DNA of 26,649 nucleotides, from positions 1 to 26,649 of IMG/VR virus record IMGVR_UViG_2778261572_000013, one strand, 5' to 3'. Source of the stretch: a virus (taxonomy: Duplodnaviria > Heunggongvirae > Uroviricota > Caudoviricetes). Position numbers and translations under genes: made by a program. Positions 3,044 through 23,917 of the stretch are shown here, piece after piece. The notes beneath the pieces were generated by a model that was given only the letters and a program-made list of their open reading frames with translations, was not told the DNA's origin and did not search any database. Each line of letters begins with the position of its first letter. Position 1 is the first letter of the stretch.

Positions 3044-3982
3044 TTATTGTATTGTTAAGATAATGCTGGCTATAATTTGAATATCCTCAATGGAACACTC
3101 AAAATCCTTACTCCCACCAGAAACAAGAATTTTGTTCTTAGGTAAACGAGTTAACTCTTTTAAAGATAACTCATTGTCAATTCCTACTAACCATTTTCCA
3201 TCTCTAATTAGGTGAAATTCTTTATCACATATGACATGTTTTTCTCCATTGCTTACAAACATCAAGCTGCTAGTTTCTTGCTTCGGAAGTAGACACCGAT
3301 CCATGGATAAAAAACCTGACTCGACAAGCACGCCATTGACCAAATTGAACTTATTTAAAATTACAGTGTTTTCTTCTTGTGAACTATTTGGTGTTTCGAT
3401 TCCTGTAACTAGCCAGGCGAGATCCGCTTTGGTTTCTAATGCGCATTTAATCACCCAATCCGCAGGGAAAGAATCTCGCATGTATCGTGTGGCTAATGTG
3501 CTTTTTGAAATACCAAGGTGGTCGGCTAAGGCTTGGCGGGTTTTAAACCCGTAAGCATTAACAATCCTCTCTATCGCGGCTTTTCCTCCGTTAGTAAGCT
3601 CAATGTGATTCTCAATGCGGCGCTTAAAGGATGATTGATGAGCGTTGCTGTTAAACCCCTCATGTGGGACTGTTTCATCATGTTGTTCCACATAAGGGGG
3701 GAAACTTTCTTCTGCATTGTTAGAACCAAAGGCCAGCCATTCTAGGGATGCGCCAGTTTCCATTGAACATATAACAACCCAATCAGCAGGGAAGGTATCG
3801 CGTGCATATCTATTAGCCATTGTGCTTTGTGAAATACCAAGATGCTTACAGAAGGCTTGGCGTGATTTGAAACCATAGGCCTTGAGTATCCTCTCAATGA
3901 CTTTTTGCCCTCCACGATTCTGCATGACCATAGCTTTCAGACTATCTTCAATATGGCGAAATGTGATTTTTTGAGTTGACAT
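3044..3982 (-). CDS. 186 CI-like immunity repressor with tandemly duplicated N-terminal DNA-binding domain
   Basis: 312 aa. Residues about 29-85 and 137-193 are paralogous (IERI.AYGFK.RQA..HLGIS.ST.A.RY.RD.FPADWV..C..ET.A.L.WL), resembling the phage CI repressor N-terminal domain. Divergent from the cox/cII operon, as expected for the repressor. Confidence 0.7.
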   Translation of the reverse strand: MSTQKITFRHIEDSLKAMVMQNRGGQKVIERILKAYGFKSRQAFCKHLGISQSTMANRYARDTFPADWVVICSMETGASLEWLAFGSNNAEESFPPYVEQHDETVPHEGFNSNAHQSSFKRRIENHIELTNGGKAAIERIVNAYGFKTRQALADHLGISKSTLATRYMRDSFPADWVIKCALETKADLAWLVTGIETPNSSQEENTVILNKFNLVNGVLVESGFLSMDRCLLPKQETSSLMFVSNGEKHVICDKEFHLIRDGKWLVGIDNELSLKELTRLPKNKILVSGGSKDFECSIEDIQIIASIILTIQ

Positions 3983-4291: not shown

Positions 4292-4323
4292 TTCCATTTT
4301 GGGATGCATCAGGAGTGTCGACT

Positions 4324-4833
4324 ATGTTTGATTACCAAGTTTCCAAACATCCACATTTTGATGAAGCCTGTCGTGCATTTGCATTGCGCCACAACTTGGT
4401 GCAACTGGCAGAACGTGCAGGTATGAATGTGCAGATTCTGCGGAACAAGCTGAATCCAGCTCAACCTCATTTATTAACCGCACCAGAAATTTGGTTGCTT
4501 ACTGATCTGACAGAAGACTCAACACTGGTAGATGGTTTTCTGGCACAGATTCACTGCCTGCCATGTGTTCCGATTAATGAGGTGGCAAAAGAGAAACTGC
4601 CGCATTACGTCATGAGTGCAACAGCAGAGATCGGGCGTGTAGCTGCAGGCGCGGTATCTGGCGATGTAAAAACCAGTGCAGGCCGTCGTGATGCTATCAG
4701 CAGCATTAACTCTGTAACACGACTGATGGCGTTGGCTGCTGTTTCATTGCAGGCCCGTTTACAGGCTAACCCTGCGATGGCGAGTGCAGTTGATACCGTG
4801 ACTGGCCTCGGTGCTTCATTTGGTTTGCTGTGA
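4324..4833 (+). CDS. Phage regulatory protein CII-like (186 CII/CP76 family)
   Basis: 169 aa starting at MFDYQV with an AGGAG RBS 5 nt upstream; position after the apl-like gene as in 186. Family assignment is from memory of the CP76-type sequence, not verified. Confidence 0.55.
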
Positions 4834-4992
4834 GGTGCTTATGCTGACGAAAGAACCATCATTTGCATCGCTGCTGGTAAAATAAAGCCCGGCAATGCAC
4901 TACGGTCACGGCTGGATCATGGGAGAGGATGGTAAACGCTGGCATCCATGTCATTCACAAGATGAATTGCTGTCTGAATTGACCACGAGAAA

Positions 4993-5232
4993 ATGGAGAA
5001 AGTCCAAATGTATGCGGCAGAAAGTGAAGTGGTTTATCAGTTTCGTTACAGAGGGGAGAGTTATTCAGTACCTGAAGATGATTTGCTCTGTTGCTATCCG
5101 TCGTTGTCGGGCGATGGTAGCTACTTTTTCACGCTAAAGGATGGAACCTTTATACGTGGTGAAAAAGTACAAGAAGTGATGCGTATAAAGACATCACCTC
5201 TTGAACGTTATCGGCGAAGTATTTATCGGTAA
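4993..5232 (+). CDS. Hypothetical early protein
   Basis: 79-aa ORF (alternative ATG at 5008 preceded by GGAG). No recognisable motif. Confidence 0.4.
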   Translation: MEKVQMYAAESEVVYQFRYRGESYSVPEDDLLCCYPSLSGDGSYFFTLKDGTFIRGEKVQEVMRIKTSPLERYRRSIYR

Positions 5233-5471
5233 CGATCTATCAGTGTCTGTATCAGATGAGTGAATTCTTGTTGTTTAACCGAACCTAAAGGAAGTTTGTT
5301 TAATTCTTCGCGGAGGAGCTCAAAAAATGCAGATTGATTTGCTGAGTCAGTTCGAAATAAGGAGTGGATCAGACCTGAAACAAGAATTCGTTGAACTGCA
5401 ACCTCATCGCGAAGACTGGAGATCTCGTTTTCAAGTTGCTCTAAACGCTCTCTTTCAACCGGGTTCAACAT
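5223..5471 (-). CDS. Hypothetical coiled-coil protein encoded antisense to the early operon
   Basis: 82 aa with a good RBS (GAAGGAA 7 nt upstream of ATG) and coherent helical sequence; overlaps the 3' end of the 4993-5232 ORF by 10 bp, convergently. Confidence 0.45.
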   Translation of the reverse strand: MLNPVERERLEQLENEISSLRDEVAVQRILVSGLIHSLFRTDSANQSAFFELLREELNKLPLGSVKQQEFTHLIQTLIDRYR

Positions 5472-5552
5472 TGATGATTCCTTCTAGCTATCAATATGTT
5501 GGTAATGGATCATATCAAAAATTTTTTAGTAGATGTGTTGTGGGATGCATAA

Positions 5553-5894
5553 ATGGCTATTGAAGGCGCTGCGGCGACTGTTCCATTAAGTCCCGGTGAA
5601 CGCCTGAATGGACTTAATCACATAGCGGAATTAAGGGCGAAAGTTTTTGGCCTGAATATTGAGTCAGAGCTTGAGCGGTTTATTAAAGATATGCGTGATC
5701 CACGGGATATCAATAATGAACAAAATAAACGGGCACTGGCTGCCATATTCTTTATGGCAAAAATTCCAGCTGAACGTCATAGCATCAGCATTAATGAGCT
5801 GACCACTGACGAAAAGCGGGAGCTGATTAAAGCAATGAATCATTTTCGTGCAGTGGTGAGCTTATTTCCCAGACGGCTAACCATGCCGAATTAA
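5553..5894 (+). CDS. Hypothetical early protein
   Basis: 113-aa ORF in the early operon; weak RBS. Confidence 0.45.
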   Translation: MAIEGAAATVPLSPGERLNGLNHIAELRAKVFGLNIESELERFIKDMRDPRDINNEQNKRALAAIFFMAKIPAERHSISINELTTDEKRELIKAMNHFRAVVSLFPRRLTMPN

Positions 5895-5961
5895 CCAACT
5901 AATGAAATTAATGGCGTAAACCCGCCGGGCATCCCTTTATCTAAATTCAGGAGAATTGATT

Positions 5962-6195
5962 ATGCGTAATATTGAAATCCTCACGACTAAAACCGGACCG
6001 GATGACGCAGGGCTTAATATTTTACTGACAGAGGCTCGTCTGGAAGAACGTCGGGCAAGGGCTGAAGCAATGGCAGCTCGCCTTGATAGCCTGGCGTGTC
6101 ATATCACATCCCGCCAGCTAAACCACGTCGAAGCGGCAGAACTGCTGCGTGTAACTGCTGAAGCAATCCAGAACGAAGCGCAGGAGATCCACTAA
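5962..6195 (+). CDS. Hypothetical early protein
   Basis: 77 aa from ATG 5962 with AGGAGAA RBS; its stop overlaps the next start (TAATG). Confidence 0.5.
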   Translation: MRNIEILTTKTGPDDAGLNILLTEARLEERRARAEAMAARLDSLACHITSRQLNHVEAAELLRVTAEAIQNEAQEIH

Positions 6196-6422
6196 TGGCT
6201 GATGCAATGGATCTCGTACAGCAGCGCGTTGAAGAAGAACACCAGCGCCATATTCGTGCTGCCCGTGCCAAAACACCGGGCGTGTCTCGCGTGCTTTGTA
6301 TTGAATGTGAAGCGCCAATTCCGCCAGCACGACGCCGCGCCATTCCGGGAGTGCAGCTTTGCATTACCTGCCAGGAAATCGCAGAGCTGAAAGGCAAACA
6401 TTACAACGGAGGTGCTGTATGA
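6195..6422 (+). CDS. TraR/DksA-family C4 zinc-finger protein
   Basis: 75 aa with CxxC...CxxC (CIECEAPIP...CITCQ) in the arrangement typical of phage TraR/DksA-like proteins. Confidence 0.7.
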
Positions 6423-6721
6423 CAAGGGCAGTGCGTATCCATCAATTAAAAATTGCACCTAAGTATTTCAACGCTGTGGTTGCAGGTCAAAAGACGGCTG
6501 AACTTCGTAAAGACGATCGTGGCTATAAAGTTGGTGATGTTCTTTCTCTTTGCGAATGGAAGCATGGCGTATTTACGGGTAGGGAATGGGCCGCTGTTAT
6601 CTCTCATGTGCTTCCGGTTAATGACGTCATGGCAGTTTCAGAACAATGGGTGATGCTATCAATTCGCCCATTAACCCCATTAGAAGCTTTAGGATATGTT
6701 ATTGCAGGAGGTGCTGTATGA
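6419..6721 (+). CDS. DUF3850/ASCH-like small protein
   Basis: 100 aa from ATG 6419 (overlaps upstream stop, ATGA). Family assignment from recalled similarity, moderate. Confidence 0.5.
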
Positions 6722-7575
6722 GTACCATCCTGAAATGGGCGGGTAATAAAACTGCCATTATGTCCGAACTGAAAAAACATCTTCCTGCTGGCCCGCGACT
6801 GGTTGAACCTTTCGCGGGTTCCTTTGCTGTGATGATGGAGACGGATTACCCCAGCTATCTTGTTGCGGATATTAATCCTGATTTAATCAACCTCTATAAA
6901 AAGGTTGCTGCTGATTGCGAGGCGTTTATATCTCGTGCCAGAGCTTTATTTGAGGAAGCAAACAGGGAGTTGGCTTATTACAACATAAGGCAGGAGTTTA
7001 ATTACTCCACTGAAATTACTGATTTCATGAAAGCGGTATATTTCCTGTATCTCAATCGTCATGGTTACCGTGGGTTATGTCGTTATAACAAGAGCGGGCA
7101 TTTCAACATTCCATACGGTAATTATAAAAATCCGTATTTCCCTGAAAAAGAAATTCGCGCATTTGCAGAGAAAGCCCAGCGAGCAACGTTTATCTGCGCC
7201 AGCTTTGATGAAACGCTGGCGATGCTGCAGGTGGGGGATGTGGTGTATTGCGATCCGCCTTATGACGGTACGTTTTCCGGCTATCACACTGACGGCTTCA
7301 CTGAAGATGACCAGTATCACCTGGCATCTGTTCTTGAATATCGATCATCAGAAGGTCATCCAGTCATTGTTTCTAACAGTGACACATCCCTGATCCGTTC
7401 GCTGTATCGAAATTTCACTCACCACTACATCAAGGCAAAACGCAGCATCGGCGTAGCAGCTGGTGAGAGTAAATCTGCAACAGAAATCATCGCTGTTTCT
7501 GGGGCGCGCTGCTGGGTGGGATTTGATCCTTCGCGTGGCGTGGATAGTTCTGCCGTGTACGGAGTGCGTGCATGA
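6718..7575 (+). CDS. dam: DNA adenine methyltransferase (Dam/D12-class N6-MTase), orphan
   Basis: 285 aa from ATG 6718 (AGGAGG RBS). N-terminal KWAGNK AdoMet motif and catalytic DPPY motif. No partner restriction enzyme nearby. Confidence 0.85.
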
Positions 7576-10572: not shown

Positions 10573-10842
10573 GAAACGTTGCTGGCGTCTGAACTTGCTT
10601 CTGGCGTCAGCAAGGTTGAACAACGAGCTGTGCGAGGCGTTAGTGTCAATTTGTTACCTTAACCACGATATATGCTAGGAAATTAACAGTTCTTAAGAAA
10701 CCGCTTGCATGATCGAGCGCATTGAACTTAAGTTTAAGTAACGAAATCAACAGATGATATTGTTGTCTAAATTTTAAAGATAATCTGTTGAGGTTGTAGG
10801 CGTCGGAGTGTAGACTTCCGCGCCATGTAAAAAGGGGGAGTT

Positions 10843-11058: not shown

Positions 11059-11900
11059 TGGCAACATTACTTTTAGCAGTGATTTTGGTTAGTGGTTTTA
11101 TTTATGTAAACCTATCACTTTCAACAAGATACCGATATAAGCGTTCCAACGGCTGGGACGCTTATTTTTTTGTGGCTGCCTGGGGTATCGTTTTTTTTCT
11201 CCTTGGCGGTTTTTTCACCTTTATTTTGAACGTCAGCGGAGGGTTTCGTTGGCTGGCTAATGCCTTGAATCTAACACCTGACAGTTTTAATGGCATGTTG
11301 TCTTCATCGAAAGACAAACTTCAAAGAATAAATGAAATCAAACAGATAGCATGGGTTATGATTTCAATTGTCCTCGCTGCGATTTCAGGTTTTGGAAATA
11401 AGTTACGCACATCACGTGGAGATCGTCGCTGGGATGCCTTAGCTAAAGCTGTGGGTAATAACGCTTTCGAATCATTACTCATGGAAGCGTCCGCAAGACA
11501 GTTTCCGATCATAGCAACTCTGTCGTCTCGCAAAATCTATGTTGGTCTTGTTACTTGTCCGGCGTTAGAAAACGGGCTTTCAGAGCACCTTGAACTTCTC
11601 CCGATGTTAAGCGGATATCGGGATAAAGATGATCTAACGATTAGTATCACGACTAACTATCACCAACATTATCTTGATAGTGGTGTGATAAGTGGAATGT
11701 CTCGGCTTAATATCGAAGATTTCCGTGTGCTCATACCAAAAGATGAGGTTGAAACAATTTCGTTTTTTGATACTGAGACATATAACAAATTTAAAGAAAA
11801 TGAAGCCAGGGATAGAAAGAGCTGTCGAAAGATTGGTAGTAAAAGTGCATCTTCGCACAGCAAGCGTGCAGCAGATACTGAGTCAAATGATCGTGCATGA
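11058..11900 (+). CDS. Hypothetical membrane protein (cassette 1, gene 2)
   Basis: 280 aa; three hydrophobic segments in the first about 115 residues, then a hydrophilic domain of about 165 aa. Translationally coupled to the 71-aa gene. Confidence 0.55.
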   Translation: MATLLLAVILVSGFIYVNLSLSTRYRYKRSNGWDAYFFVAAWGIVFFLLGGFFTFILNVSGGFRWLANALNLTPDSFNGMLSSSKDKLQRINEIKQIAWVMISIVLAAISGFGNKLRTSRGDRRWDALAKAVGNNAFESLLMEASARQFPIIATLSSRKIYVGLVTCPALENGLSEHLELLPMLSGYRDKDDLTISITTNYHQHYLDSGVISGMSRLNIEDFRVLIPKDEVETISFFDTETYNKFKENEARDRKSCRKIGSKSASSHSKRAADTESNDRA

Positions 11901-11948
11901 CTATGCTGCATGAGATCGCATGATCGTTTGAGGATCGTTTTTGCTAAG

Positions 11949-11972
11949 GCCCGCCAGAACTGGCGGGCTTTT
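11949..11972 (+). terminator. Rho-independent terminator after cassette 1
   Basis: GCCCGCCAG-aa-CTGGCGGGC perfect 9-bp stem followed by TTTT. Confidence 0.7.
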
Positions 11973-12231
11973 GCATAGATCATGCACCTGCATGAAAACT
12001 ACTACATAAAGCGGGCAGGCGTGGCGGGGATACGAGCGCGCGCTGTCGGTATTTTCAAAATTTAAGTAAGATAGTAAATGCAAAATGTGTATCACTCTAT
12101 CGGGTACAGAAAAACCATTCAGAAACTATAATTGAACAGTAACAAACGTGATGATGTTCACTTTTTTAAATTTTTTATATAAACTGATGGGTACTATGAC
12201 AGTAATATGCCAGCTTGCGTGAGAATGAATT

Positions 12232-12696
12232 GTGGAAAAAGAGCTAAATCAAAATCAGATCAGTGAAGTGCAGATTAATGTCTGCCACAAAATCTATGAA
12301 TTTTTTAAGTCTTTAGATGGAGCATCCGATTTCAAAATCGAAACTGAAACCAGTGGCGATGATGGCGATCTAAGTTTTTCTTTTGAGCAATCAAAGACTA
12401 TTTTTAAAGTGGAAGTGCTTTCTACAGAATACTTTAAATTAATTAGAATTATAAATGCATTTGACTTTACCGCAACAAAGTCTATTGAGGAAATGAATTT
12501 ATTAGGCAGGGCAAATCAATTTAATGCATATGCAGTGGGCATTAAGGCTCTGGTTCATACTAAAAAAGTAGGTTATGTTGATTTCTGCGTAGATATATTA
12601 TCTTCTAAAGGTGACGTTAATTCTAGCGATCTTAATTTATCCTTGGTCTTACTAAGAAGTGCGCCAATGAATTTTCTGGCAGTAACTAAGGACTAG
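12232..12696 (+). CDS. Hypothetical acidic soluble protein (cassette 2, gene 1)
   Basis: 154-aa ORF from a GTG start, AT-rich, no recognised motif; followed 10 bp later by the next gene. Confidence 0.45.
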   Translation: MEKELNQNQISEVQINVCHKIYEFFKSLDGASDFKIETETSGDDGDLSFSFEQSKTIFKVEVLSTEYFKLIRIINAFDFTATKSIEEMNLLGRANQFNAYAVGIKALVHTKKVGYVDFCVDILSSKGDVNSSDLNLSLVLLRSAPMNFLAVTKD

Positions 12697-12706
12697 TGAG
12701 GACAAT

Positions 12707-13480
12707 ATGCCAACAAAGCCTAGTTTAGATGAAAATTCAACGTTAAACTTGAAGGCGCAATCTTATTTAAAAGCTGTCTCGGTAGATGCCTCAAATGATT
12801 CTACCCACAATGGATGGAATGCTGATGTAATTATTTTTTTTGTTTTCATTGTTGTTGTAATGGCTCTGACACTATCAAAATGGCTTCAGAATAAAATAGA
12901 TGAATTTATTTCAAAAAAATATTTTAGATGGGTTTTTTCTGGGGTAATTCTTCCAGCGATATCGTTAGGCTTAGCAAGCTACACAACAGCATCAAATCAA
13001 AAATTTGTATACATTGCTACAATTATAGTAAGTCTTGTGATTGGTGAGCGAGCTTCTGCACTGACAGCTGAGAAATCCGAACAACAACTTGAGGCTGAGA
13101 CAGGAAAATTAACTAGCAAAATAAGTGTGCTAGAAGCTGCACATACTAAGGCTTTGGAAAAGAAAGATGCTGAACTTGCAGCTAAAGGTAATGAAATTAG
13201 AGCTGTATCTGATGAGCTTACTAAAAGAGTTGATGAGTTACGTCAGAATTATTTGCGAAGATTGTACGAAATAGCTACAGATCATCAAGAGGCTGATTGT
13301 GTTGTCATTAAATTGAGAGTAAAAGAGGTGGCTCAAGATATTATGGCAACAAGTGGGCTTCTTTTAACTATGGATAGTATTGATTATCAGGTGAGAAATA
13401 ACCAAGTTCCGTTGCCACAGGAAAGTTCAATTGTTTATGAATATGCTATGAAGAATGCTAAAGCTCGAAATCAGCAATGA
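12707..13480 (+). CDS. Hypothetical membrane protein with coiled-coil domain (cassette 2, gene 2)
   Basis: 257 aa with RBS GTGAGGA; three hydrophobic segments (about residues 41-113), then a heptad-like charged region (EKSEQQLEAETGKLTSKISVLEAAHTKALEKKDAELAAKGNEIRAVSDELTKRVDELRQ). Confidence 0.55.
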   Translation: MPTKPSLDENSTLNLKAQSYLKAVSVDASNDSTHNGWNADVIIFFVFIVVVMALTLSKWLQNKIDEFISKKYFRWVFSGVILPAISLGLASYTTASNQKFVYIATIIVSLVIGERASALTAEKSEQQLEAETGKLTSKISVLEAAHTKALEKKDAELAAKGNEIRAVSDELTKRVDELRQNYLRRLYEIATDHQEADCVVIKLRVKEVAQDIMATSGLLLTMDSIDYQVRNNQVPLPQESSIVYEYAMKNAKARNQQ

Positions 13481-13518: not shown

Positions 13519-14547
13519 TTACAGTTTATATTCAGAGAAATTTATAATGCGCTCACCCAACCAATAATTAATCTCTGCAATCCGCATTTGCAGGGCTACT
13601 AGCTCATTTCGCACAAAAACATTTGCCGCCTTCTCTACATCCCCAAACCCTCCAACATTATTAGGCATTATCCCCATCATTTGCGGCGGTACGCGGTGCG
13701 CCGCCATCATGTCGTCCCGGCTCACGTTCTTGATATTCAGAAACTCATCCTTCGCCGCGACTTCTGACAGAGGAATGATCTGAAGCCCATCCTTTTTGCC
13801 GTTAGGCGAGTACATAAACAGGTTGCGGAAGTTACCCGGTCCTTTGGCGCTTTTCATTGCGTTGCGGAGGTTGTTCACATCCTCCTGGTTTTGCGCGGCA
13901 TCGGTCATGTACATGATGAAGCCTGCATGACTGCCGTTAATGTAATACTTCCGGCGGAACAGCGTGGCGGACTCGTTGAGCAGAGCGGATGGAATAGCAG
14001 AAAGATAGCCAGGCAGGCCGTAGATCTCCTGATTAATATCCGGTTCCATCAGATGAAAGATGCTGCCTTTCGTGAACTGATACGGCTGGGTTGCCATACC
14101 GTATTGCACAAACCAGTAGGTATCCAGGTCTAATCCGCGTCGAGTGTATTTTGCCAGGGCAGGTTCAAGGGCGATAACTTCACCGAAGCGGTTCGTGCGT
14201 TTCTCCAGGTAGGCATTACCAAATACCAGATAGTCCTGCACAAAACGTGAAAAAGCCTGCTGGCTGAGCAACGGGTGAGGGATATAGGTGCTGGTCAGAA
14301 TGTTGCACTTTACTGCAATCGGTGAGCTGTGGTGTACGGCGGCGCGGAAGGTTCGCGCCAGGCCGTCGAAACTCACTGGTGGCTCATACCAACGGTCCAT
14401 CTGTACGCATTCCACATAGTCCAGCAGTTCGCGGCGGTCCAGAACAGGAACGGGATCACCGAAGCTGAATGCTTCGGCTGAAGTCTGGTTTTTATGCTGG
14501 ATCTGTTTCGTCGCCGCAGCGCGGTTCTTCTTACTCTTTCCCATCAA
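13519..14547 (-). CDS. Q: Portal vertex protein (P2 gpQ-like)
   Basis: 342 aa (P2 Q is about 344 aa), leftward, adjacent to the terminase remnant, in the P2 cos-Q-P arrangement. Confidence 0.8.
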   Translation of the reverse strand: MMGKSKKNRAAATKQIQHKNQTSAEAFSFGDPVPVLDRRELLDYVECVQMDRWYEPPVSFDGLARTFRAAVHHSSPIAVKCNILTSTYIPHPLLSQQAFSRFVQDYLVFGNAYLEKRTNRFGEVIALEPALAKYTRRGLDLDTYWFVQYGMATQPYQFTKGSIFHLMEPDINQEIYGLPGYLSAIPSALLNESATLFRRKYYINGSHAGFIMYMTDAAQNQEDVNNLRNAMKSAKGPGNFRNLFMYSPNGKKDGLQIIPLSEVAAKDEFLNIKNVSRDDMMAAHRVPPQMMGIMPNNVGGFGDVEKAANVFVRNELVALQMRIAEINYWLGERIINFSEYKL

Positions 14548-15236
14548 AAAATCTCCACAATATTGCTGGTATTGGCGGACTCGCCCTGCAGTGGTTCGTT
14601 AAACAGTGCGTGCATTGTTGCCCAGGCCAGATCGGCATGGCTGGCTTCTTCGCTGCGGCTGGCTTCATAGGTCGGGCGGTTGCCGCTGGCGGTGGTGGCG
14701 CGACGGATTGCCATGAATGACTGCGCAATGTCGGTGTGCCCGGCGTCAAACTCAAGACGGCGGTGGCTGATAATGTCGTAGGCCTTGAGTACCAGGGCGT
14801 TTTTAACGTTGGGGTTGTAGACAAACTCCCGGACGGCAGGAAAAAACGCTTTCACGTTCTCGTAAACCCCGTGACCAACGCCGGTTGAGTCGATGCCGAT
14901 ATAGGTCACGTTGTACTGTTCGGTCAGTTTTTTGATGGCGTCAGCTTGGGCGCGAAAGTCCATTCCGCGCCACTGGTGACGCTCAAGAATGCGGAACTTA
15001 CCGCCTGGCACGGCTGGCGGTGCCACCACCACGCATCCGGCGCTGTCGCCGTTCTGCGTACCTTTTGCCGGGTCATAACCGATCCACACTTCGCGCCAGC
15101 CAAACGGGCGCAGGGCCAGTGCATGAAAGTCGGTCCAGACTTCCCAGCTGTCGGTACAAATACCGCGCATTGTTTCACTGCCCCCATCACCGCAACCATA
15201 AGGCTCCAGTAAGTTTTTTCTAACGGAGCACGGCTC
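14544..15236 (-). pseudogene. P: Terminase large subunit (gpP) 3' fragment; N-terminal ATPase domain missing
   Basis: Open frame ends where the O gene starts. The segment from about WIGYDPAKG...DSAGCVVVAPP onward resembles a terminase nuclease domain. No Walker A region is present, and the frame's first 47 codons are antisense to the O start. Confidence 0.6.
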
Positions 15237-16070
15237 ATGACAGTGAAAGCAAAGCGTTTTCGCATCGGGGTGGAAGGTGCCACCACCGACGGACGCGAAA
15301 TCCAGCGTGAATGGCTGGAACAGATGGCAGCCAGCTACAACCCGGCGGTGTATACCGCGCTGATTAACCTTGAGCACATCAAGTCTTATCTGCCGGACAG
15401 CACCTTTAACCGCTACGGCAAGGTGACGGCGCTGTTTGCTGAAGAAATCACGGAGGGTCCGCTGGCGGGCAAGATGGCACTGTATGCCGACGTTGAGCCA
15501 ACGGAGTCCCTGGTGGAACTGGTGAAAAAAGGCCAGAAATTATTCACCTCTATGGAAGTCAGCCCGAAGTTTGCTGATACGGGCAAAGCCTACCTGGTCG
15601 GCCTGGCAGCCACTGATGACCCAGCCAGTCTGGGTACGGAAATGCTGACATTCAGCGCCAGCGCAGCCCATAACCCGCTGGCAAACCGCAAGCAGAATCC
15701 CGCCAATCTCTTTACCGCCGCAGAGGAAACGGTGATCGAACTGGAAGAAATCCAGGATGACAAACCGTCCCTGTTTGCCCGTGTCACGGCGCTGTTTACA
15801 AAAAAAGAGCAGTCCGACGATGCCCGGTTTTCTGATGTGCATAAGGCCGTGGAACTGGTCGCCACTGAGCAGCAAAACCTGAGTGTGCGCACCGAAAAAT
15901 CCCTTTCTGAGCAGGAAGAACGTCTGTCTGAGCTGGAGACAGTTCTGCAGGCACAACAGGCCGCCTTTAACGAACTGGTGGACAAGCTGAGCCATGAAGA
16001 CAGCCGCCAGGACTACCGCCAGCGTGCAACGGGCGGTAACGCCCCCGCTGACACTCTGACCAATTGCTGA
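15237..16070 (+). CDS. O: Capsid scaffolding protein (P2 gpO-like)
   Basis: 277 aa (P2 O is about 284 aa), first gene of the rightward head operon, GGAG RBS. Confidence 0.8.
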   Translation: MTVKAKRFRIGVEGATTDGREIQREWLEQMAASYNPAVYTALINLEHIKSYLPDSTFNRYGKVTALFAEEITEGPLAGKMALYADVEPTESLVELVKKGQKLFTSMEVSPKFADTGKAYLVGLAATDDPASLGTEMLTFSASAAHNPLANRKQNPANLFTAAEETVIELEEIQDDKPSLFARVTALFTKKEQSDDARFSDVHKAVELVATEQQNLSVRTEKSLSEQEERLSELETVLQAQQAAFNELVDKLSHEDSRQDYRQRATGGNAPADTLTNC

Positions 16071-16086
16071 TGGAGCACAAAACCTG

Positions 16087-17145
16087 ATGAAGAAGAATAC
16101 CCGCTTTGCTTTTAACGCTTACCTGCAGCAGCTGGCGCGTCTGAACGGTGTGGCAGTTGAAGAACTGTCCAGCAAGTTCACCGTGGAGCCGTCTGTACAG
16201 CAGACGCTGGAAGACCAGATCCAGCAGTCCGCCGCTTTCCTGACGCTGATTAACGTCACGCCAGTGACTGAGCAGTCCGGTCAGCTGCTGGGGCTGGGTG
16301 TTGGCAGCACCATTGCCGGAACCACTGACACCACCGCGAAAGAGCGTGAACCTGTCGATCCGACGCTGATGGTCGATGTGGAATACAAATGCGAACAGAC
16401 CAACTTTGACACAGTGCTGACCTACGCGAAGCTGGACCTGTGGGCGAAGTTTCAGGATTTCCAGGTGCGTATCCGTAACGCCATTGTGAAACGTCAGGCA
16501 CTGGACCGCATCATGATCGGCTTTAACGGCGTGAAGCGTGCGAAAACCTCCAACCGCAGCGAAAACCCGCTGCTGCAGGATGTGAACAAAGGCTGGTTGC
16601 AGAAAATCCGTGAGGATGCACCGGATCACGTCATGGGCACCACCACCACGGGCGGTGAAACCACACCGGGTGCGGTGAAAGTCGGGAAAGGTGGCGAATA
16701 TGCCAACCTGGACGCCGTAGTGATGGATGCCGTCAATGAGCTTATCGACGTGGTCTACCAGGACGATGATGATCTGGTGGTGATTTGCGGTCGTGAACTG
16801 CTGTCTGACAAGTACTTCCCGCTGGTCAATAAAGAGCAGGAAAACAGTGAAAAACTGGCTGCCGATATGATCATCAGTCAGAAACGCATGGGTGGCCTGC
16901 AGGCCGTGCGTGCGCCGTTCTTCCCGCCGAATGCGCTGCTGATCACCCGTCTGGATAACCTGTCCATCTACTGGCAGGAAGATACCCGCCGCCGTTCAGT
17001 TATCGACAACCCGAAACGTGACCGGATTGAAAATTTTGAATCCGTTAACGAAGCCTATGTGGTTGAGGACTATCGCTGCGCTGCACTGGTGGAAAACATC
17101 CAGATTGGTGACTTCAGCGCCGCCGCAGCAGAAACCGGAGCGTAA
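16087..17145 (+). CDS. N: Major capsid protein (P2 gpN-like)
   Basis: 352 aa, follows O; size and order as P2 N. Confidence 0.8.
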   Translation: MKKNTRFAFNAYLQQLARLNGVAVEELSSKFTVEPSVQQTLEDQIQQSAAFLTLINVTPVTEQSGQLLGLGVGSTIAGTTDTTAKEREPVDPTLMVDVEYKCEQTNFDTVLTYAKLDLWAKFQDFQVRIRNAIVKRQALDRIMIGFNGVKRAKTSNRSENPLLQDVNKGWLQKIREDAPDHVMGTTTTGGETTPGAVKVGKGGEYANLDAVVMDAVNELIDVVYQDDDDLVVICGRELLSDKYFPLVNKEQENSEKLAADMIISQKRMGGLQAVRAPFFPPNALLITRLDNLSIYWQEDTRRRSVIDNPKRDRIENFESVNEAYVVEDYRCAALVENIQIGDFSAAAAETGA

Positions 17146-17148
17146 TTC

Positions 17149-17799
17149 ATGAGCCTGAGTCCCGCACGGCAGCATCGCCTGCGCGTTCAGGCTGAACAGG
17201 CCGCTCGCGAGGGTGGCAGTGTTCGCCACGCGTCGGGCTATGACCTGATGCTGCTGCAACTGGCGGAAGACCGCCGCCGTCTCAAGGGCGTTCAGTCCAC
17301 GGTCAAAAAAGCGGAAATCAAGGTGGAGCTGCTGCCGAAATATGCCGCCTGGGCGGAGGGCGTTCTGGCTGCCGGAGGCGCTCAACAGGATGACGTGCTG
17401 ATGTACGTGATGCTGTGGCGCATTGATGCCGGAGATTATGCCGGGGCGCTGGAGATCGGGCGTCATGCCCTGCGTCATGGCTGGGTGATACCGCTGGGTA
17501 ACCGCAACGTGCAGACCGTGCTGGCAGAGGAAATGGCAGACGCGGCGCAGAGCGCAATGCTTGCCGCCACCGGCTTTGATGCCGATCTGTTGCTGCAGAC
17601 GCTGGAGCTGACAGACGGTCTGGATATGCCGGACCAGTCACGGGCGCGTCTGCATAAAGCGATTGGCGCTGTCCTGAGTGAAAGCAATCCGGCGTCTGCC
17701 CTTAATCATCTCAACCATGCGTTACAGCTCGATCCCCGCTGTGGCGTGAAAAAAGACAAACAGCAGCTGGAGCGCAGACTGCGCAATGACAGCCGCTGA
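17149..17799 (+). CDS. M: Terminase endonuclease/small subunit (P2 gpM-like)
   Basis: 216 aa, follows N; order as in P2. Confidence 0.7.
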   Translation: MSLSPARQHRLRVQAEQAAREGGSVRHASGYDLMLLQLAEDRRRLKGVQSTVKKAEIKVELLPKYAAWAEGVLAAGGAQQDDVLMYVMLWRIDAGDYAGALEIGRHALRHGWVIPLGNRNVQTVLAEEMADAAQSAMLAATGFDADLLLQTLELTDGLDMPDQSRARLHKAIGAVLSESNPASALNHLNHALQLDPRCGVKKDKQQLERRLRNDSR

Positions 17800-17894
17800 C
17801 AGAACGTGCCCCCGCGCACGGGCGGCACGGGGTGGCGAAAGGCATAGCCACATCAAAATCCCGTTCACCGCCCTCTATTTCAGGAGAAAGCAGC

Positions 17895-18125
17895 ATGAAG
17901 TTTGTTGCGCCAGAACAGGCACCGGAACAGGCGGAAATCATCAGAAATACGCCGTTCTGGCCTGATGTGGACCTGTCGGAGTTTCGCAGCGTGATGCGCA
18001 CTGACGGCACGGTGACGCAGCCGCGTTTAAAGCAGGTTGCCCTGTCTGGACCGACGGCATTGGTAATACGTCGGGCGTCATTCCCGGCAAAACCATTACG
18101 GAGCGACAGGCAGCAGAAGGGCTGA
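17895..18125 (+). CDS. L: Head completion protein gpL-like, probably 3'-truncated
   Basis: ATG 17895 with AGGAGAAAG RBS; only 76 codons (P2 L is about 169 aa); frame is lost where lysozyme-like sequence begins in another frame. Confidence 0.4.
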   Translation: MKFVAPEQAPEQAEIIRNTPFWPDVDLSEFRSVMRTDGTVTQPRLKQVALSGPTALVIRRASFPAKPLRSDRQQKG

Positions 18126-18397
18126 TCTCCAACGTGCTGCGTGTGGAGCGGGCGCTGGAAAGGTGTGTGAAGCAACAGCCGCCGCAGAAGGTGTATGACG
18201 CTGCGGTGTCGTTTGCCTTCAACGTGGGTACGGGCAATGCCTGCAGTTCCACGCTGGTGAAATTGCTCAATCAGCGGCGCTGGGCGGATGCGTGCCGACA
18301 GTTGCCGCGCTGGGTGTATGTAAAAGGTGTGTTTAATCAGGGGCTGGATAACCGCCGTGCACGGGAGATGGCCTGGTGCTTACAGGGAGCAAACTGA
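18005..18397 (+). pseudogene. K: Phage lysozyme (gpK-like, GH24 family) lacking the N-terminal catalytic region
   Basis: Frame-2 open stretch encodes CPVWTDGIGNTSG...GKTITERQAAEGL...SFAFNVGTGN...RRW..., matching the middle and C-terminus of lambda/P21-type lysozymes; no in-frame N-terminus with the catalytic Glu upstream. Confidence 0.55.
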
Positions 18398-18398
18398 A

Positions 18399-18836
18399 AT
18401 GAAAAAGAAAGTAATCAGCGGACTGTTTCTGATGTTATGGATGGCGCTGTTAATCGCAGCAATGGTGTATCCGCAGGGGATTTTTCCGGTACTGGCAGCG
18501 TCCGGTGTCTGGGTAGCCTGTCTGCTGACATGGGGGGCAATTCCGGTAGCACTGGTTGCGTTAATTAAGAACGGCCCGCTCTGGCAGGAGTTGAGGGCAT
18601 CTTTGCTGAAGAGCATTACCCGAAAAGAAAACGTATTTATCAGCTGGATGATGCGATTGCTGATTGTCGTAAGTCTCGCCTGGACGGGGTGGGCTATTAC
18701 CCTGGTCTTTTATCTGCTGACCGTTATCGCCACCATTTTTCACTGGCCGCCATCCGTTACTGACGTTATGCCGCTGACCGAAGTGCTGGAATGGCGGTAT
18801 AAAGCGATTCAGAGAAGCGGGGACAACGATGAGTGA
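18399..18836 (+). CDS. Small membrane protein, LysA-like candidate
   Basis: 145 aa with four hydrophobic segments, RBS AGGGAG, immediately after the lysozyme remnant as P2 lysA follows K. Its stop overlaps the T start. Confidence 0.4.
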   Translation: MKKKVISGLFLMLWMALLIAAMVYPQGIFPVLAASGVWVACLLTWGAIPVALVALIKNGPLWQELRASLLKSITRKENVFISWMMRLLIVVSLAWTGWAITLVFYLLTVIATIFHWPPSVTDVMPLTEVLEWRYKAIQRSGDNDE

Positions 18837-21800
18837 TAACAACCTGCGGCTGCAGGTCATTCTTAATGCGGTTGACAAACTCACCCGCCCATTCCGTGCT
18901 GCACAGGCCAGTTCGAAAGAGCTGGCTGGCGCAATCAGAAACTCCCGTGACGCATTAAAGCAACTCAATCAGGCGGGTAACAGCCTGGAAAAATTTCGCA
19001 AGCTGCAGGCCGATAACAAGAAGTTAGGCGACAGGCTGAACTATGCCAGACAGAAGGCTAATTTACTTAGCTCTGAGCTGGAGTCGATGGAACAACCATC
19101 ACAACGGCACCTTGTGGCTTTAGGTCGGCAAACGCTGGCAGTCCAACGCCTGGAAGAACAACAAAAATATTTGCAGAAGCAAACGGCGCTTGTGCGTGCA
19201 GAACTGTACCGGGCGGGAATTTCTGCGAAAGATGATGCGGGAGCAACTGCCCGTTTAGCCCGTGAAACATCACGTTATAACCAGGAATTGTCGCAACAGG
19301 AGGCGAGGCTGAAGCGACTGGGGGAAGCTCAGCGCAGGATGAATGCAGCGCGTGCCAGTTATGCCCGTTCGCTGGAGGTGCGTGATCGTATTGCAGGTGT
19401 TGGAGCCACCACCACGGCTGCAGGGCTGGCAATGGGCGCACCAGTGATGGCGGCAGTAAAAAGCTATACCAGCATGGAAGATGCTATGAAAGGTGTGGCA
19501 AAGCAGGTCAATGGTCTGCGTGACGATAATGGCAACCGCACTGCACGTTTTTATGAAATGCAGGATGCCATCAAGGCTGCCAGCGAACAGTTGCCGATGG
19601 AAAACGGTGCGGTGGACTTCGCTGCACTGGTTGAAGGTGGTGCGCGCATGAACGTCGCAAACCCTGACGACAGCTGGGAAGACCAGAAACGTGATCTGCT
19701 GGCCTTCGCCAGCACGGCAGCAAAGGCGGCAACAGCCTTTGAGCTGCCAGCGGATGAACTGTCAGAAAGTCTGGGTAAAATCGCCCAGCTCTACAAAATC
19801 CCTACCCGCAATATTGAACAGCTCGGTGATGCGCTGAACTATCTGGATGATAACGCCATGTCGAAAGGGGCAGACATCATTGATGTCATGCAACGCCTGG
19901 GCGGTGTGGCTGATCGTCTGGATTATCGTAAAGCGGCGGCGCTGGGTTCCACCTTCCTGACACTGGGTGCTGCGCCGGAGGTTGCAGCCAGTGCAGCAAA
20001 CGCGATGGTGCGTGAATTGTCCATTGCCACCATGCAAAGCAAGAGTTTCTTTGAAGGAATGAATCTGCTGAAACTCAATCCTGAAGTGATTGAAAAGCAG
20101 ATGACGAAGGATGCGATGGGAACCATCCAGCGCGTGCTGGAGAAGGTGAACGCACTGCCACAGGACAAGCGTCTGTCTGCCATGACCATGTTGTTTGGTA
20201 AAGAGTTTGGTGATGACGCGGCGAAACTGGCAAACAACCTTCCGGAACTGCAGCGCCAGCTAAAACTGACAGCGGGCAATGATGCGCTCGGTTCCATGCA
20301 GAAAGAATCCGACATCAACAAAGACTCACTTTCTGCTCAGTGGTTGCTGGTCAAAACCGGAGCGCAGAACACCTTCAGCAGCCTGGGCGAAACGCTGCGC
20401 CAGCCGCTGATGGATATTCTGTACACGGTGAAAAGCATCACGGGGGCGTTGCGCCGCTGGGTGGAAGCTAACCCGGAACTGACAGGCACACTGGTGAAAG
20501 TAGCGGCTGTTGTGGCTGCGGTTACCGTTGGCCTCGGCACCTTAGCGGTGGCGCTGGCTGCAGTGCTGGGGCCGCTGGCAGTGATTCGTCTGGGATTCTC
20601 TGTGCTGGGTATCAAAACGTTACCTTCCGTTACGGCAGCAGTAACCCGAACCAGCAGCGCGTTGTCCTGGCTGGCTGGCGCACCACTGGCACTGCTGCGA
20701 CGCGGGCTTGCTTCATCGGGCAACGCCGCAGGTTTACTTACTGCGCCGTTGTCGTCTTTGCGCCGCACGGCATTACTGACGGGAAATGTCCTGAAAACTG
20801 TAGCAGGTGCGCCGGTTGCACTTTTGCGGTCTGGATTATCCGGTTTACGTGCTGTTGCTGTGATGTTTATGAATCCTCTGGCGGTACTGCGCGGTGGACT
20901 GGCCGCCGCAGGCACGGTGCTGCGAGTACTGGCATCTGGTCCACTGGCGATGCTGCGCGTTGCCCTGTATGCCGTATCTGGTCTGTTAGGTGCTCTGCTC
21001 AGTCCGATAGGTCTTGTGGTTACTGCACTGGCGGGCGTGGCGCTGGTTGTCTGGAAATACTGGCAACCCATCACCGCATTTCTTGGTGGCGTGGTGGAAG
21101 GATTCAAAGCGGCGGCAGGTCCCGTCAGTGAAGCATTCGAACCGCTTAAGCCCGTGTTCCAGTGGATTGGCGACAAAGTACAGGCGCTGTGGGGCTGGTT
21201 TACTGATCTGCTGACGCCCGTTAAGTCGACCTCTGCCGAACTGCAGAGTGCAGCGGCAATGGGGCGACGATTCGGGGAGGCACTGGCGGAAGGGCTAAAT
21301 ATGGTCATGCATCCGCTGGACTCCCTGAAATCCGGCGTTTCCTGGTTGCTGGAGAAGCTCGGCATTGTCAGTAAAGAGGCCGCAAAGGCAAAACTGCCGG
21401 AAAGCGTGACGCGTCAGCAACCTGCGACGGTGAATGCAGACGGTAAAGTGATGATGCCATCGGGTGGTTTTCCATCATGGGGATATGGCTTTGCGGGGAT
21501 GTATGACAGCGGCGGGTATATCCCGCGCGGGCAGTTTGGCATCGTCGGTGAAAACGGGCCGGAAATTGTTAACGGCCCGGCAAATGTGACCAGCCGGAGA
21601 AATACAGCTGCACTGGCTGCCGTTGTTACCGGAATGATGGGCGTTGCTGCCGCGCCTGCAGAGCTTCCACCGTTGCACCCTTTGGCACTTCCCGCGAAAG
21701 GTGGAGAAGCAATTGTGAGTCGCGCAGCCACTGTGCCGCCCGTTTACAGGATTGAGGCACCGACGCAGATCATCATCCAGACGCAGCCAGGACAAAGTGC

Positions 21801-21906
21801 GCAGGATATTGCGCGGGAGGTGGCCCGCCAGCTTGATGAACGTGAACGCAGGCTGAAGGCAAAGGCCAGGAGTAACTACAGCGATCAGGGGGGATACGAC
21901 GCATGA
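18829..21906 (+). CDS. T: Tail tape measure protein (P2 gpT-like)
   Basis: 1025 aa; N-terminal coiled-coil region, central Gly/Ala-rich hydrophobic repeats (xPLAxLRxGL units); followed by U and D as in P2. Confidence 0.8.
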   Translation: MSDNNLRLQVILNAVDKLTRPFRAAQASSKELAGAIRNSRDALKQLNQAGNSLEKFRKLQADNKKLGDRLNYARQKANLLSSELESMEQPSQRHLVALGRQTLAVQRLEEQQKYLQKQTALVRAELYRAGISAKDDAGATARLARETSRYNQELSQQEARLKRLGEAQRRMNAARASYARSLEVRDRIAGVGATTTAAGLAMGAPVMAAVKSYTSMEDAMKGVAKQVNGLRDDNGNRTARFYEMQDAIKAASEQLPMENGAVDFAALVEGGARMNVANPDDSWEDQKRDLLAFASTAAKAATAFELPADELSESLGKIAQLYKIPTRNIEQLGDALNYLDDNAMSKGADIIDVMQRLGGVADRLDYRKAAALGSTFLTLGAAPEVAASAANAMVRELSIATMQSKSFFEGMNLLKLNPEVIEKQMTKDAMGTIQRVLEKVNALPQDKRLSAMTMLFGKEFGDDAAKLANNLPELQRQLKLTAGNDALGSMQKESDINKDSLSAQWLLVKTGAQNTFSSLGETLRQPLMDILYTVKSITGALRRWVEANPELTGTLVKVAAVVAAVTVGLGTLAVALAAVLGPLAVIRLGFSVLGIKTLPSVTAAVTRTSSALSWLAGAPLALLRRGLASSGNAAGLLTAPLSSLRRTALLTGNVLKTVAGAPVALLRSGLSGLRAVAVMFMNPLAVLRGGLAAAGTVLRVLASGPLAMLRVALYAVSGLLGALLSPIGLVVTALAGVALVVWKYWQPITAFLGGVVEGFKAAAGPVSEAFEPLKPVFQWIGDKVQALWGWFTDLLTPVKSTSAELQSAAAMGRRFGEALAEGLNMVMHPLDSLKSGVSWLLEKLGIVSKEAAKAKLPESVTRQQPATVNADGKVMMPSGGFPSWGYGFAGMYDSGGYIPRGQFGIVGENGPEIVNGPANVTSRRNTAALAAVVTGMMGVAAAPAELPPLHPLALPAKGGEAIVSRAATVPPVYRIEAPTQIIIQTQPGQSAQDIAREVARQLDERERRLKAKARSNYSDQGGYDA

Positions 21907-23575: not shown

Positions 23576-23794
23576 ATGATGATTTGCCCACTGTGTGGAA
23601 GTGCCGCCCATACTCGCAGCAGTTTTCAGGTATCTTCATTGACCAAAGAGCGTTACAACCAGTGCCAGAACATTAACTGCAGCCATACTTTTGTTACCCA
23701 TGAAACTTTTGTTCGTTCGATTGCAACGCCAAAAGAGTCAAATCCGGTTCAGCCGCATCCAATGAAATCAGGACAGGTGGCGCTCTCTCTTTGA
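23576..23794 (+). CDS. ogr: Ogr-type zinc-finger late-gene transcription activator
   Basis: MMICPLCGSAAHTRSS...KERYNQCQNINCSHTF... closely parallels P2 Ogr (MFHCPLCQHAAH...KERYHQCQNVNCSATF); last prophage gene before attR, as in P2. Confidence 0.9.
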   Translation: MMICPLCGSAAHTRSSFQVSSLTKERYNQCQNINCSHTFVTHETFVRSIATPKESNPVQPHPMKSGQVALSL

Positions 23795-23870: not shown

Positions 23871-23917
23871 CAACAAAAAACCCATCAACCTTGAACCGAA
23901 ATGGCGGGGTTGATGGG
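23871..23917 (-). terminator. Rho-independent terminator of ybjL, containing the putative attR core
   Basis: Perfect 10-bp stem CCCATCAACC/GGTTGATGGG followed on the minus strand by U-tract; the 14-mer AACAAAAAACCCAT (23872-23885) is identical to 17-30 at the left end. Confidence 0.6.

Follow-up and report, generated by a model that had tools for sequence, protein, structure and literature searches.

A 3' remnant of the large terminase gene P beside gene O in a defective P2/186-like prophage of E. coli, probably left by one short-microhomology deletion

An open frame in which terminase sequence runs straight on into the opposite strand of a neighbouring gene raises the question of what it is: a short terminase, a fragment kept for some use, or what a deletion has left behind. 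The frame considered here lies at 14544-15377 on the minus strand of the window, by which we mean the whole stretch of 26,649 nucleotides analysed (IMG/VR record IMGVR_UViG_2778261572_000013), and reads 277 aa from a GTG start. Our reading, to which we give a probability of about 0.88, is that it is a pseudogene remnant of gene P, produced by a single illegitimate, microhomology-mediated deletion. The deletion, its endpoints, the domain content left and the loss of promoter elements were observed directly. The frame and its two neighbours are composed as follows.

14544-15152, minus strand: P remnant, codons 387-588 plus the TGA stop, carrying Terminase_6C, a complete RNaseH-like nuclease domain
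15153-15377, minus strand: non-genic 5' extension of the frame, the first 75 of its 277 codons, not gpP
13519-14544, minus strand: portal gene Q, intact, 341 aa (Pfam Phage_portal; ungapped alignment to E. coli W)
15237-16070, plus strand: O (scaffold), full length (Pfam Phage_GPO)

The sole Pfam match of the frame is Terminase_6C, at residues 99-260 (profile positions 1-154 of 155, E = 4e-50); neither the Terminase_6N ATPase domain nor the Terminase_5 HTH was found in it. Intact gpP is 588 aa long in E. coli W and 590 aa in P2 (AF063097), as a first-pass annotation had it (about 590 aa), and holds the Terminase_5 HTH at 11-68, the Terminase_6N ATPase at 162-382 and Terminase_6C at 410-571. 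That annotation had described the gene as a 3' fragment adjoining the upstream sequence of O, with a nuclease-like domain, in a frame that spans the ribosome-binding site and start codon of O at 15237. All of this agrees with what we found, namely Terminase_6C alone, on gpP 387-588. Its figure of about 230 remaining gpP codons was too high: 202 are left (aa 387-588), and the 75 codons before them read the antisense strand of the O leader and of O codons 1-47. Over its 609 nt the remnant differs by 1 nt from the intact gene of E. coli W, with 100% amino acid identity to gpP 387-588, which puts its homology to gpP, as judged from sequence, far beyond chance. The P stop overlaps the Q ATG by 1 nt. 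Residues 1-386 of gpP were not found anywhere in the window (tblastn, any frame; best E = 0.07), the deleted P-O DNA left no trace elsewhere in the window, and no second large terminase was found in the element.

An ATG at 15170 lies in frame, and gene callers start there a 208-aa product (MRGICTD followed by gpP 388-588). A weak G-rich stretch upstream of this ATG would allow such a product to be made. No sigma-70-like promoter was predicted between 14400 and 15600. The 208-aa product had no PADLOC defence-family match at E <= 0.01, an NCBIfam search with the fragment returned nothing, and a sequence search of intact gpP against solved structures gave no relevant match. A search for Walker A in the window, earlier said to find none, does give one classical match within a real gene, Old. 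This test is non-diagnostic, since intact gpP itself lacks the classical [AG]xxxxGK[ST] motif; its own motif is of the SRQIGAT type.

The remnant ends at a junction, called D1 below.

15149-15152: deletion junction D1, 4-nt microhomology TGTC (BLASTN endpoints; three-way display against L001 and L003)

By BLASTN against intact relatives, window 13553-15152 corresponds to 1501-3100 of L001, and window 15149-18046 to 4313-7210 of the same contig. The two segments overlap by 4 nt (TGTC) in the window, and their endpoints give a loss of 1,212 bp. The loss comprises 1,158 bp of P coding sequence (codons 1-386) and 54 bp of the P-O intergenic region, which is 142 bp long in intact relatives and of which the 88 bp before the O ATG are kept. 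Loss of the 5' part of P had been proposed and is borne out; its size had been put at about 1 kb, and is 1.21 kb in all. Alignment to intact gpP genes thus sets the deletion endpoint at 15149-15152 and does not yield a full-length short terminase. D1 joins P codon 386/387 to the mid-point of the shared Ogr/B activator site, close to the boundary between ATPase and nuclease domains (residue 382 versus 387). No convincing repeat or palindrome able to explain a hotspot was seen at its endpoints.

The 54 bp lost from the intergenic region bear on transcription in both directions.

15141-15158, plus strand: late-gene activator (Ogr/B) site, cut, as seen by sequence comparison with an intact relative
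15153-15236, plus strand: O-proximal intergenic part, kept, with the presumed O core promoter and the O ribosome-binding site
16087-17145, plus strand: N (major capsid), full length (Pfam Phage_cap_P2)
17149-17799, plus strand: M (small terminase), full length (Pfam Phage_term_smal)

Activation by Ogr/B in P2/P4 probably needs both half-sites. The GenBank records of P2 and 186 place a single activator/B-protein site in common between the divergent promoters pP/pO (p12/pV), and the Ogr-dependent late promoters of P2 share the consensus TGT-N12-ACA (PMC3931495). In an intact relative the 18-nt TGT-N12-ACA element reads TGTGTGGTTGTCGGTACA; its version in the window reads TTCCCAGCTGTCGGTACA, the left 8 of 18 nt having been swapped for P coding sequence (TTCCCAGC), and the left half-site TGT is gone. 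A shared site of this type, lying some 55 nt ahead of each of the two start sites, is not present in the window, and the pP side is deleted, P promoter core and start site included. A scan of the window for perfect TGT-N12-ACA gave six chance-level sites, none of them at the P-O junction. On the other side, 15149-15236 shows zero differences from E. coli W, and the O core promoter is presumed to lie at about 15168-15205, with a start near 15205, by the annotation geometry of 186 and P2. The divergent promoter region, reported as missing, is preserved in part: the P core promoter and start are gone and the activator site is cut, but on the O side the core promoter, the ribosome-binding site and the gene itself are intact.

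In the P2 record the P operon consists of P and Q, with Q downstream, so that Q is here without its late promoter. The P fragment has no promoter of its own, and both it and the portal gene are most likely silent. Read-through from elsewhere could still transcribe both. The O-N-M block (15237-17799, plus strand) aligns without gaps to intact relatives; with the TGT half-site gone from the activator site, its transcription is most likely weakened.

The element as a whole is a P2/186-like prophage of E. coli, defective on several counts.

17-23885: defective prophage, about 23.9 kb, between rcdA and ybjL
17-30 and 23872-23885: att cores AACAAAAAACCCAT, 14 nt each, bounding the prophage
12018-12036, plus strand: probable cos cohesive-end sequence GGCGTGGCGGGGATACGAG, whose first 13 nt are those of phage 186 cos
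18043-18046: deletion junction D2, 873 bp lost, microhomology TGTC as at D1
18712-18731: deletion junction D3, about 9.7 kb lost, from lysA to E', true microhomology about 6-7 nt (TATCGCC)
23576-23794, plus strand: ogr/delta-type late activator gene, intact, 72 aa, annotated likewise in relatives

Intact relatives at the same rcdA/ybjL site are about 35.6 kb long. The Peduoviridae order int-cI...A...cos-Q-P/O-N-M-L...T-U-D-ogr, with flanking att repeats, is kept minus three deleted blocks (1,212, 873 and about 9,700 bp absent relative to intact relatives), and the probable cos sits inside a 153-bp block, 11893-12046, that is conserved in all relatives. D2 removed the 3' part of L, the whole of X and the holin gene, and the 5' part of lysozyme K, leaving Phage_GPL profile positions 1-36 of 139 and Phage_lysozyme positions 50-125 of 125. 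D3 removed R, S, V, W, J, I, H, G, FI and FII with the promoters pV and pF, and gives a LysA::GpE' fusion frame at 18327-18836. Together these two deletions amount to about 10.6 kb, D1 to 1.2 kb. The prophage does not hold a full head, packaging, lysis and tail set: P lacks its 5' two-thirds, L its 3' part, K its 5' part and lysA its 3' part, and X, holin, lysB/C, E and the genes from R to FII just named are missing. As no other large terminase is present in the element, we infer that it is unable to package DNA on its own, in agreement with the first-pass annotation; the final step draws on what the ATPase of TerL is known to do. Two other deletions accompany the terminase lesion, so that packaging failure is not the sole reason why this prophage is dead.

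All retained segments are 96-98% identical in nucleotides to intact relatives, and apart from the lesions above they align without indels to relatives whose genes are annotated intact. With a remnant 1 nt in 609 away from an intact gene and retained segments free of indels, the decay is deletional and recent, with almost no point-mutation decay. We propose that one deletion of 1,212 bp between 4-nt TGTC microhomologies, in a P2/186-like prophage, would at one stroke have stripped gpP of its DNA-binding and ATPase domains, removed the core and start site of the P promoter, and cut off the left part of the activator site. It would have left the nuclease-domain coding sequence in frame, by chance, with the antisense of the O leader. 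Added to the L-to-K and lysA-to-E' deletions, it would preclude DNA packaging, lysis and tail building.

Assemblies bearing D1 are marked by the sequence TTCCCAGCTGTCGGTACAAA. Among 5,426 complete genomes of E. coli, of which about 1,220 have the gpP gene, none contains the junction in one piece, and its 30-mer and 20-mer had no matches in GTDB species representatives, JGI metagenomes or IMG/VR. An exact-protein look-up for the junction allele returned six contigs. This allele is rare. A different P deletion is present in 4 of the 5,426 genomes. C-terminal truncated fragments of gpP are common in public E. coli assemblies: a 204-aa one occurs in 254 blocks of the assembly collection. Six of its contexts were read; in four, P is cut by a deletion into tube, T, D or ogr, and the other two have an internal P deletion and a full-length but disrupted P, respectively.

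The observation that complicates a one-off deletion is that an identical D1 junction was found in window-type prophages (L005, L006, L008) and in L004-type prophages (L004, L007, L009), two types that differ in flanking haplotypes, integrase, immunity region, cargo and other deletions. Starting 35 nt from the junction on the left and 28 nt from it on the right, their flanks diverge, each matching a different intact phage allele. A single random deletion with plain vertical descent does not predict the junction on a second haplotype background. The 1,212-bp deletion might then have arisen repeatedly through a driving mechanism, a hotspot or site-directed recombination, and the TGTC common to D1 and D2, as well as an independent P deletion in STEC308 that begins 26 bp away, point the same way. 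We nevertheless consider recurrence unlikely. The homology is just 4 nt, with no flanking repeat or palindrome to direct the event; the absence of the junction from the complete genomes, many of which have the gene, argues against a hotspot; and other defective P2-like prophages show, at the same locus, different junctions with unrelated microhomologies of 2-7 nt. The data are also explained if the deletion arose once and was afterwards passed on by gene conversion or gap repair with co-resident P2-like phages, heterology setting the bounds. An apparent clustering of P truncation endpoints near codon 385 was rejected as an ascertainment effect, the protein used to retrieve the contigs itself beginning at M385. 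Two candidate sites for private alleles common to both types near the junction (15572, 16031) were uninformative, as the intact prophage L016 has both.

Far less probable is that the P-O junction allele is something other than a passive scar, being either recurrent and sequence-directed, or copied by double-strand gap repair between P2-like prophages and kept for a benefit to the host, which might come from a packaging-dead prophage or from an orphan nuclease domain with portal, for instance by superinfection interference.

Slightly more doubtful still is the proposal that the nuclease-domain fragment and Q form a retained functional gene whose junction allele is selected; one possibility would be a TerL C-terminal domain acting alone, which by docking on portals or cutting DNA would hinder superinfecting P2-like phages in their packaging. 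The deletion lies almost on the ATPase/nuclease boundary, creates an in-frame ATG and is found on two backgrounds, and the 208-aa product is identical in both lineages despite 23 differences in 605 coding sites, all synonymous. However, the fragment of each lineage is 1-2 nt from some intact gpP allele, which means that the synonymous differences arose in intact genes under terminase selection, before truncation. Further points against a function are the deleted P promoter, with none predicted in its place, the rarity of the allele, the lack of a PADLOC match, and the ongoing deletion of neighbouring genes in L006 and L004. Contig L006 (99.98% identical) has one extra deletion, O::D, indicating that decay is continuing.

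That the frame is a naturally short full-length terminase, or the nuclease half of a split one, can be dismissed: gene callers do give a 208-aa gene and Terminase_6C is complete, but over its 609 nt the remnant is colinear with, and 99.8% identical to, the 3' end of genes 1,767 nt long that occur in >1,200 E. coli genomes, and the reading is refuted by the antisense-O residues before the junction and by the finding that no frame of the window resembles Terminase_6N or the N-terminus of gpP.

The remnant reading is one of ordinary prophage decay. The 202 residues are the C-terminal Terminase_6C domain of the family of P2 gpP (AF063097) and 186 Orf12 (U32222), and the Q-P / O-N-M order with an activator site between divergent promoters is that of P2 and 186; unlike these, the window is without residues 1-386, the P promoter and 8 of 18 nt of the activator site. 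The intact relatives, E. coli W (NC_017664), OkiPb01716 (NZ_AP042701, with the same attachment site) and Klebsiella phage 4LV2017 (Peduoviridae, Elveevirus), at 96-98% identity, differ from the window in its three deleted blocks and its other cargo between cos and Q. Microhomology decay that keeps Q and 3' P and loses variable parts of the late region is also seen in STEC306-308, Eco_23-3571 and L018-L022. In STEC308, unlike here, the P N-terminus and both promoters are kept, and in L018-L022 P is joined to tube, T, D or ogr.

In annotation, the 208/277-aa frame should be called a gpP pseudogene fragment and not a terminase, a 'terminase-like protein' or an 'oxidoreductase'; the truncated gpP group includes NCBI entries under the names 'terminase-like protein' and 'oxidoreductase, partial'. 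The prophage itself is to be scored defective, and it illustrates cleanly how P2-like elements decay, by successive short-microhomology deletions with immunity and defence cargo intact. Wider interest attaches only to the junction common to two otherwise different prophages: gene-conversion transfer of deletion alleles between co-resident prophages, if true, would bear on the spread and persistence of defective prophages. As in domesticated or cryptic enterobacterial prophages, morphogenesis and lysis are lost and immunity and defence (Old, and the cos-proximal hotspot of PMC9122126) are kept; unlike in domesticated ones, nothing indicates co-option of the terminase fragment. Integrase, immunity, replication and defence cargo genes are all retained in the prophage.

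The minus-strand open frame at 14544-15377, which the first-pass annotation had read as a 3′ remnant of the large terminase gene P abutting the scaffold gene O, was confirmed, with 277 codons and a GTG start. In Pfam it matches Terminase_6C alone, which describes the RNaseH-like nuclease domain of large terminases (residues 99-260, full profile, E = 4e-50). Codons 1-75 are not terminase sequence but run antisense to the O leader and O codons 1-47. Public gene calls start the fragment at an in-frame ATG, 15170, giving a 208-aa product composed of MRGICTD followed by gpP 388-588. Q, the P fragment, O, N and M stand in P2 order, and the neighbours are as follows:

13519-14544, minus strand, portal gene Q, full length
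15237-16070, scaffold gene O, full length
16087-17145, major capsid protein gene N, full length
17149-17799, small terminase gene M, full length

With P2/186-like prophages of over 1,200 complete E. coli genomes, and with Peduoviridae phages of Klebsiella, the region shares 96-98% identity; their terminase gene measures 1,767 bp (588 aa). BLASTN against the intact prophage of E. coli W (L001) returned two colinear blocks, window 13553-15152 matching L001 1501-3100, and window 15149-18046 matching L001 4313-7210. Alignment to a second intact prophage, OkiPb01716, gave the same endpoints. By this comparison 1,212 bp are missing from the window, and the two sides meet in a 4-nt microhomology, TGTC (15149-15152). 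The lost block comprises gpP codons 1-386 (1,158 bp) and 54 bp of the P-O intergenic region, 142 bp long in full. With it went the Terminase_5 HTH (11-68) and all of the Terminase_6N ATPase (162-382), whereas the linker and the complete nuclease domain (410-571) were spared. In the 609 nt kept of P, a single synonymous difference from the E. coli W gene was found, and the 202 retained gpP residues are identical. The terminase reading is upheld, with its sizes corrected: 202 gpP residues instead of about 230 codons, and 1,212 bp missing in all. Neither the deleted DNA nor gpP residues 1-386 were found elsewhere in the window and, with the ATPase domain gone, the claim that the element cannot package DNA was judged right.

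The feature is a pseudogene fragment inside a multiply deleted P2/186-like prophage, which is a known and common situation. A 204-aa C-terminal gpP fragment, called from internal Met-385, was found in 254 blocks of the assembly collection under the name 'terminase-like protein', and 'oxidoreductase, partial' is the label given to related fragments. Among the contexts read, the deletion cutting P extended to the tail tube, T, D or ogr gene, or P was internally deleted (as in the STEC308 type), or it was full-length yet disrupted. Junctions of the other truncated-P contexts were assorted microhomologies of 2-7 nt. Given the many fragments, varied contexts and assorted junctions, truncated gpP remnants are ordinary in decayed P2-like prophages. 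In two defective P2-like prophages at different chromosomal sites (L019 and L022), the left endpoints of the P deletion agree within 0-3 nt, after ...CAGGTTCTGGTAT (junctions at ~6689-6691 in window orientation), with T and D respectively as right partners.

A shared junction stands out. The exact P-O junction and the exact 208-aa product recur in a defective prophage of another kind, also located between rcdA and ybjL (L004, L007 and L009; L004 junction at ~10606-10609 in window orientation, compared with window 15115-15179). This second type differs from the window in integrase, immunity region, cargo and portal variant, and its secondary deletions are others (N::W and sheath::D/ogr). The two types were compared on both sides of the junction.

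Table. Nucleotide differences in the P fragment (605 nt) and the right flank (15149-16971, 1,823 nt).
Window type, P fragment: 1/605 from nearest intact allele, E. coli W
Window type, right flank: 16/1,823 from nearest intact allele, strain 8GC
L004 type, P fragment: 1-2/605 from nearest intact alleles, USMARC-50748 and S171-1
L004 type, right flank: 2/1,823 from nearest intact allele, PCP07083
Window versus L004, P fragment: 23/605, all synonymous
Window versus L004, right flank: 62/1,823

Differences between the two types reach to 35 nt left of the junction and begin again 28 nt to its right. Beyond these points, the flanking haplotypes match different intact phages, and no allele private to junction-bearing elements was found. 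Each flank has a nearly identical counterpart among intact-gene alleles, so the all-synonymous pattern is uninformative on selection of the fragment. The junction itself is rare: no copy turned up in 5,426 complete E. coli genomes, nor in GTDB representatives, JGI metagenomes or IMG/VR, and no structure suggestive of a hotspot was seen at its endpoints. Both observations speak against a hotspot. A single origin is held to be most likely, and independent recurrence in the two prophage types unlikely. After a single origin, co-resident intact P2-like phages would have served as templates for gene conversion or gap repair, with tracts ending at the junction, where homology stops.

The deletion also affects the late promoters. 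In the GenBank records of P2 and of 186, the divergent late promoters have one annotated activator site between them, at ~55 nt from either start (Ogr site of pP and pO in P2, B-protein site of p12 and pV in 186). The homologous element of the intact relative reads TGTGTGGTTGTCGGTACA (L001 4305-4322) and resembles the 186 B site GTTGTGTGGGCGGTTGTCCA; P2 late promoters are Ogr-dependent and have in common a TGT-N12-ACA element (PMC3931495). The right deletion endpoint falls inside this element, window 15141-15158 reading TTCCCAGCTGTCGGTACA, so that its left TGT half-site is gone. The divergent promoter region had been described as missing; this holds for the P core promoter along with its start site, but the O-side core promoter, ribosome-binding site and O are untouched, with 0 differences from E. 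coli W over 15149-15236 and, by 186 geometry, an O start site probably near 15205. The activator gene is present:

23576-23794, ogr, intact

No sigma-70-like promoter was predicted near the P fragment. Judging from sequence, the P fragment and Q would be transcriptionally orphaned, and activation of O-N-M would be impaired; activation at P2/P4 promoters generally needs both half-sites. In L001 (4256-4322, the corresponding part being deleted in the window), the distance between the P start codon and the middle of the shared activator site is only ~55 nt, compared to 77-79 nt in 186 and P2; in this phage group the P mRNA would then have almost no leader, unless translation of P begins at Met-17, the start annotated in Klebsiella phage 4LV2017.

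The prophage lies between rcdA and ybjL, with 14-nt att cores at 17-30 and 23872-23885, and contains integrase, Old, CI repressor, replication protein A, cos-proximal cargo, Q, the P fragment, O, N, M, T, U, D and ogr. Its other features are:

1231-3000, minus strand, Old (OLD-family ATPase-TOPRIM nuclease), full length (PADLOC Old, E = 1e-234)
3044-3982, minus strand, CI repressor, 312 aa, two Phage_CI_repr HTH stretches and a CI C-terminal domain
12018-12036, probable cos
12232-12696, plus strand, cargo ORF, 154 aa, between cos and Q
12707-13480, plus strand, cargo ORF, 257 aa, predicted membrane segment, between cos and Q
18043-18046, junction (TGTC) of a second deletion, 873 bp, 3′ part of L to 5′ part of K
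near 18712-18731, junction of a third deletion, ~9.7 kb, lysA to E′
18829-21906, tape-measure gene T, intact

Old lies between the integrase and CI genes, whereas P2 Old is cos-proximal. CI, 189 aa in the related STEC308 prophage, looks like an N-terminally duplicated or extended repressor. The cos-proximal region is a defence hotspot of P2-like phages (PMC9122126). Its cargo here is unannotated, and stands in place of the PIN-domain, GmrSD, AIPR or retron-type cargo of relatives. Neither ORF had a significant family in Pfam, NCBIfam, PHROG or PADLOC, a borderline Pfam match to TetR_C_4 (E = 2e-4) being discounted as not meaningful; the pair is a candidate uncharacterised defence pair.

Along with all baseplate, fibre, sheath and tube genes, the ~9.7-kb deletion takes out promoters pV and pF; the genes T, U and D survive intact but have lost pF. 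Directly 5′ of T, the deletion also joins the LysA N-terminus in frame to the GpE′ C-terminus (18327-18836, plus strand). TGTC is found at two of the three deletion junctions, a coincidence of ~1% by chance as judged post hoc; other junctions at the locus are unrelated sequences. All remaining prophage DNA can be aligned, with no indels, to relatives whose annotated genes are intact; the decay is deletional and recent. NLMV01000024.1 (assembly GCA_002229415.1) is 100% identical to the window across 20.6 kb, and a contig of another sample, 99.98% identical, carries an additional O::D deletion.
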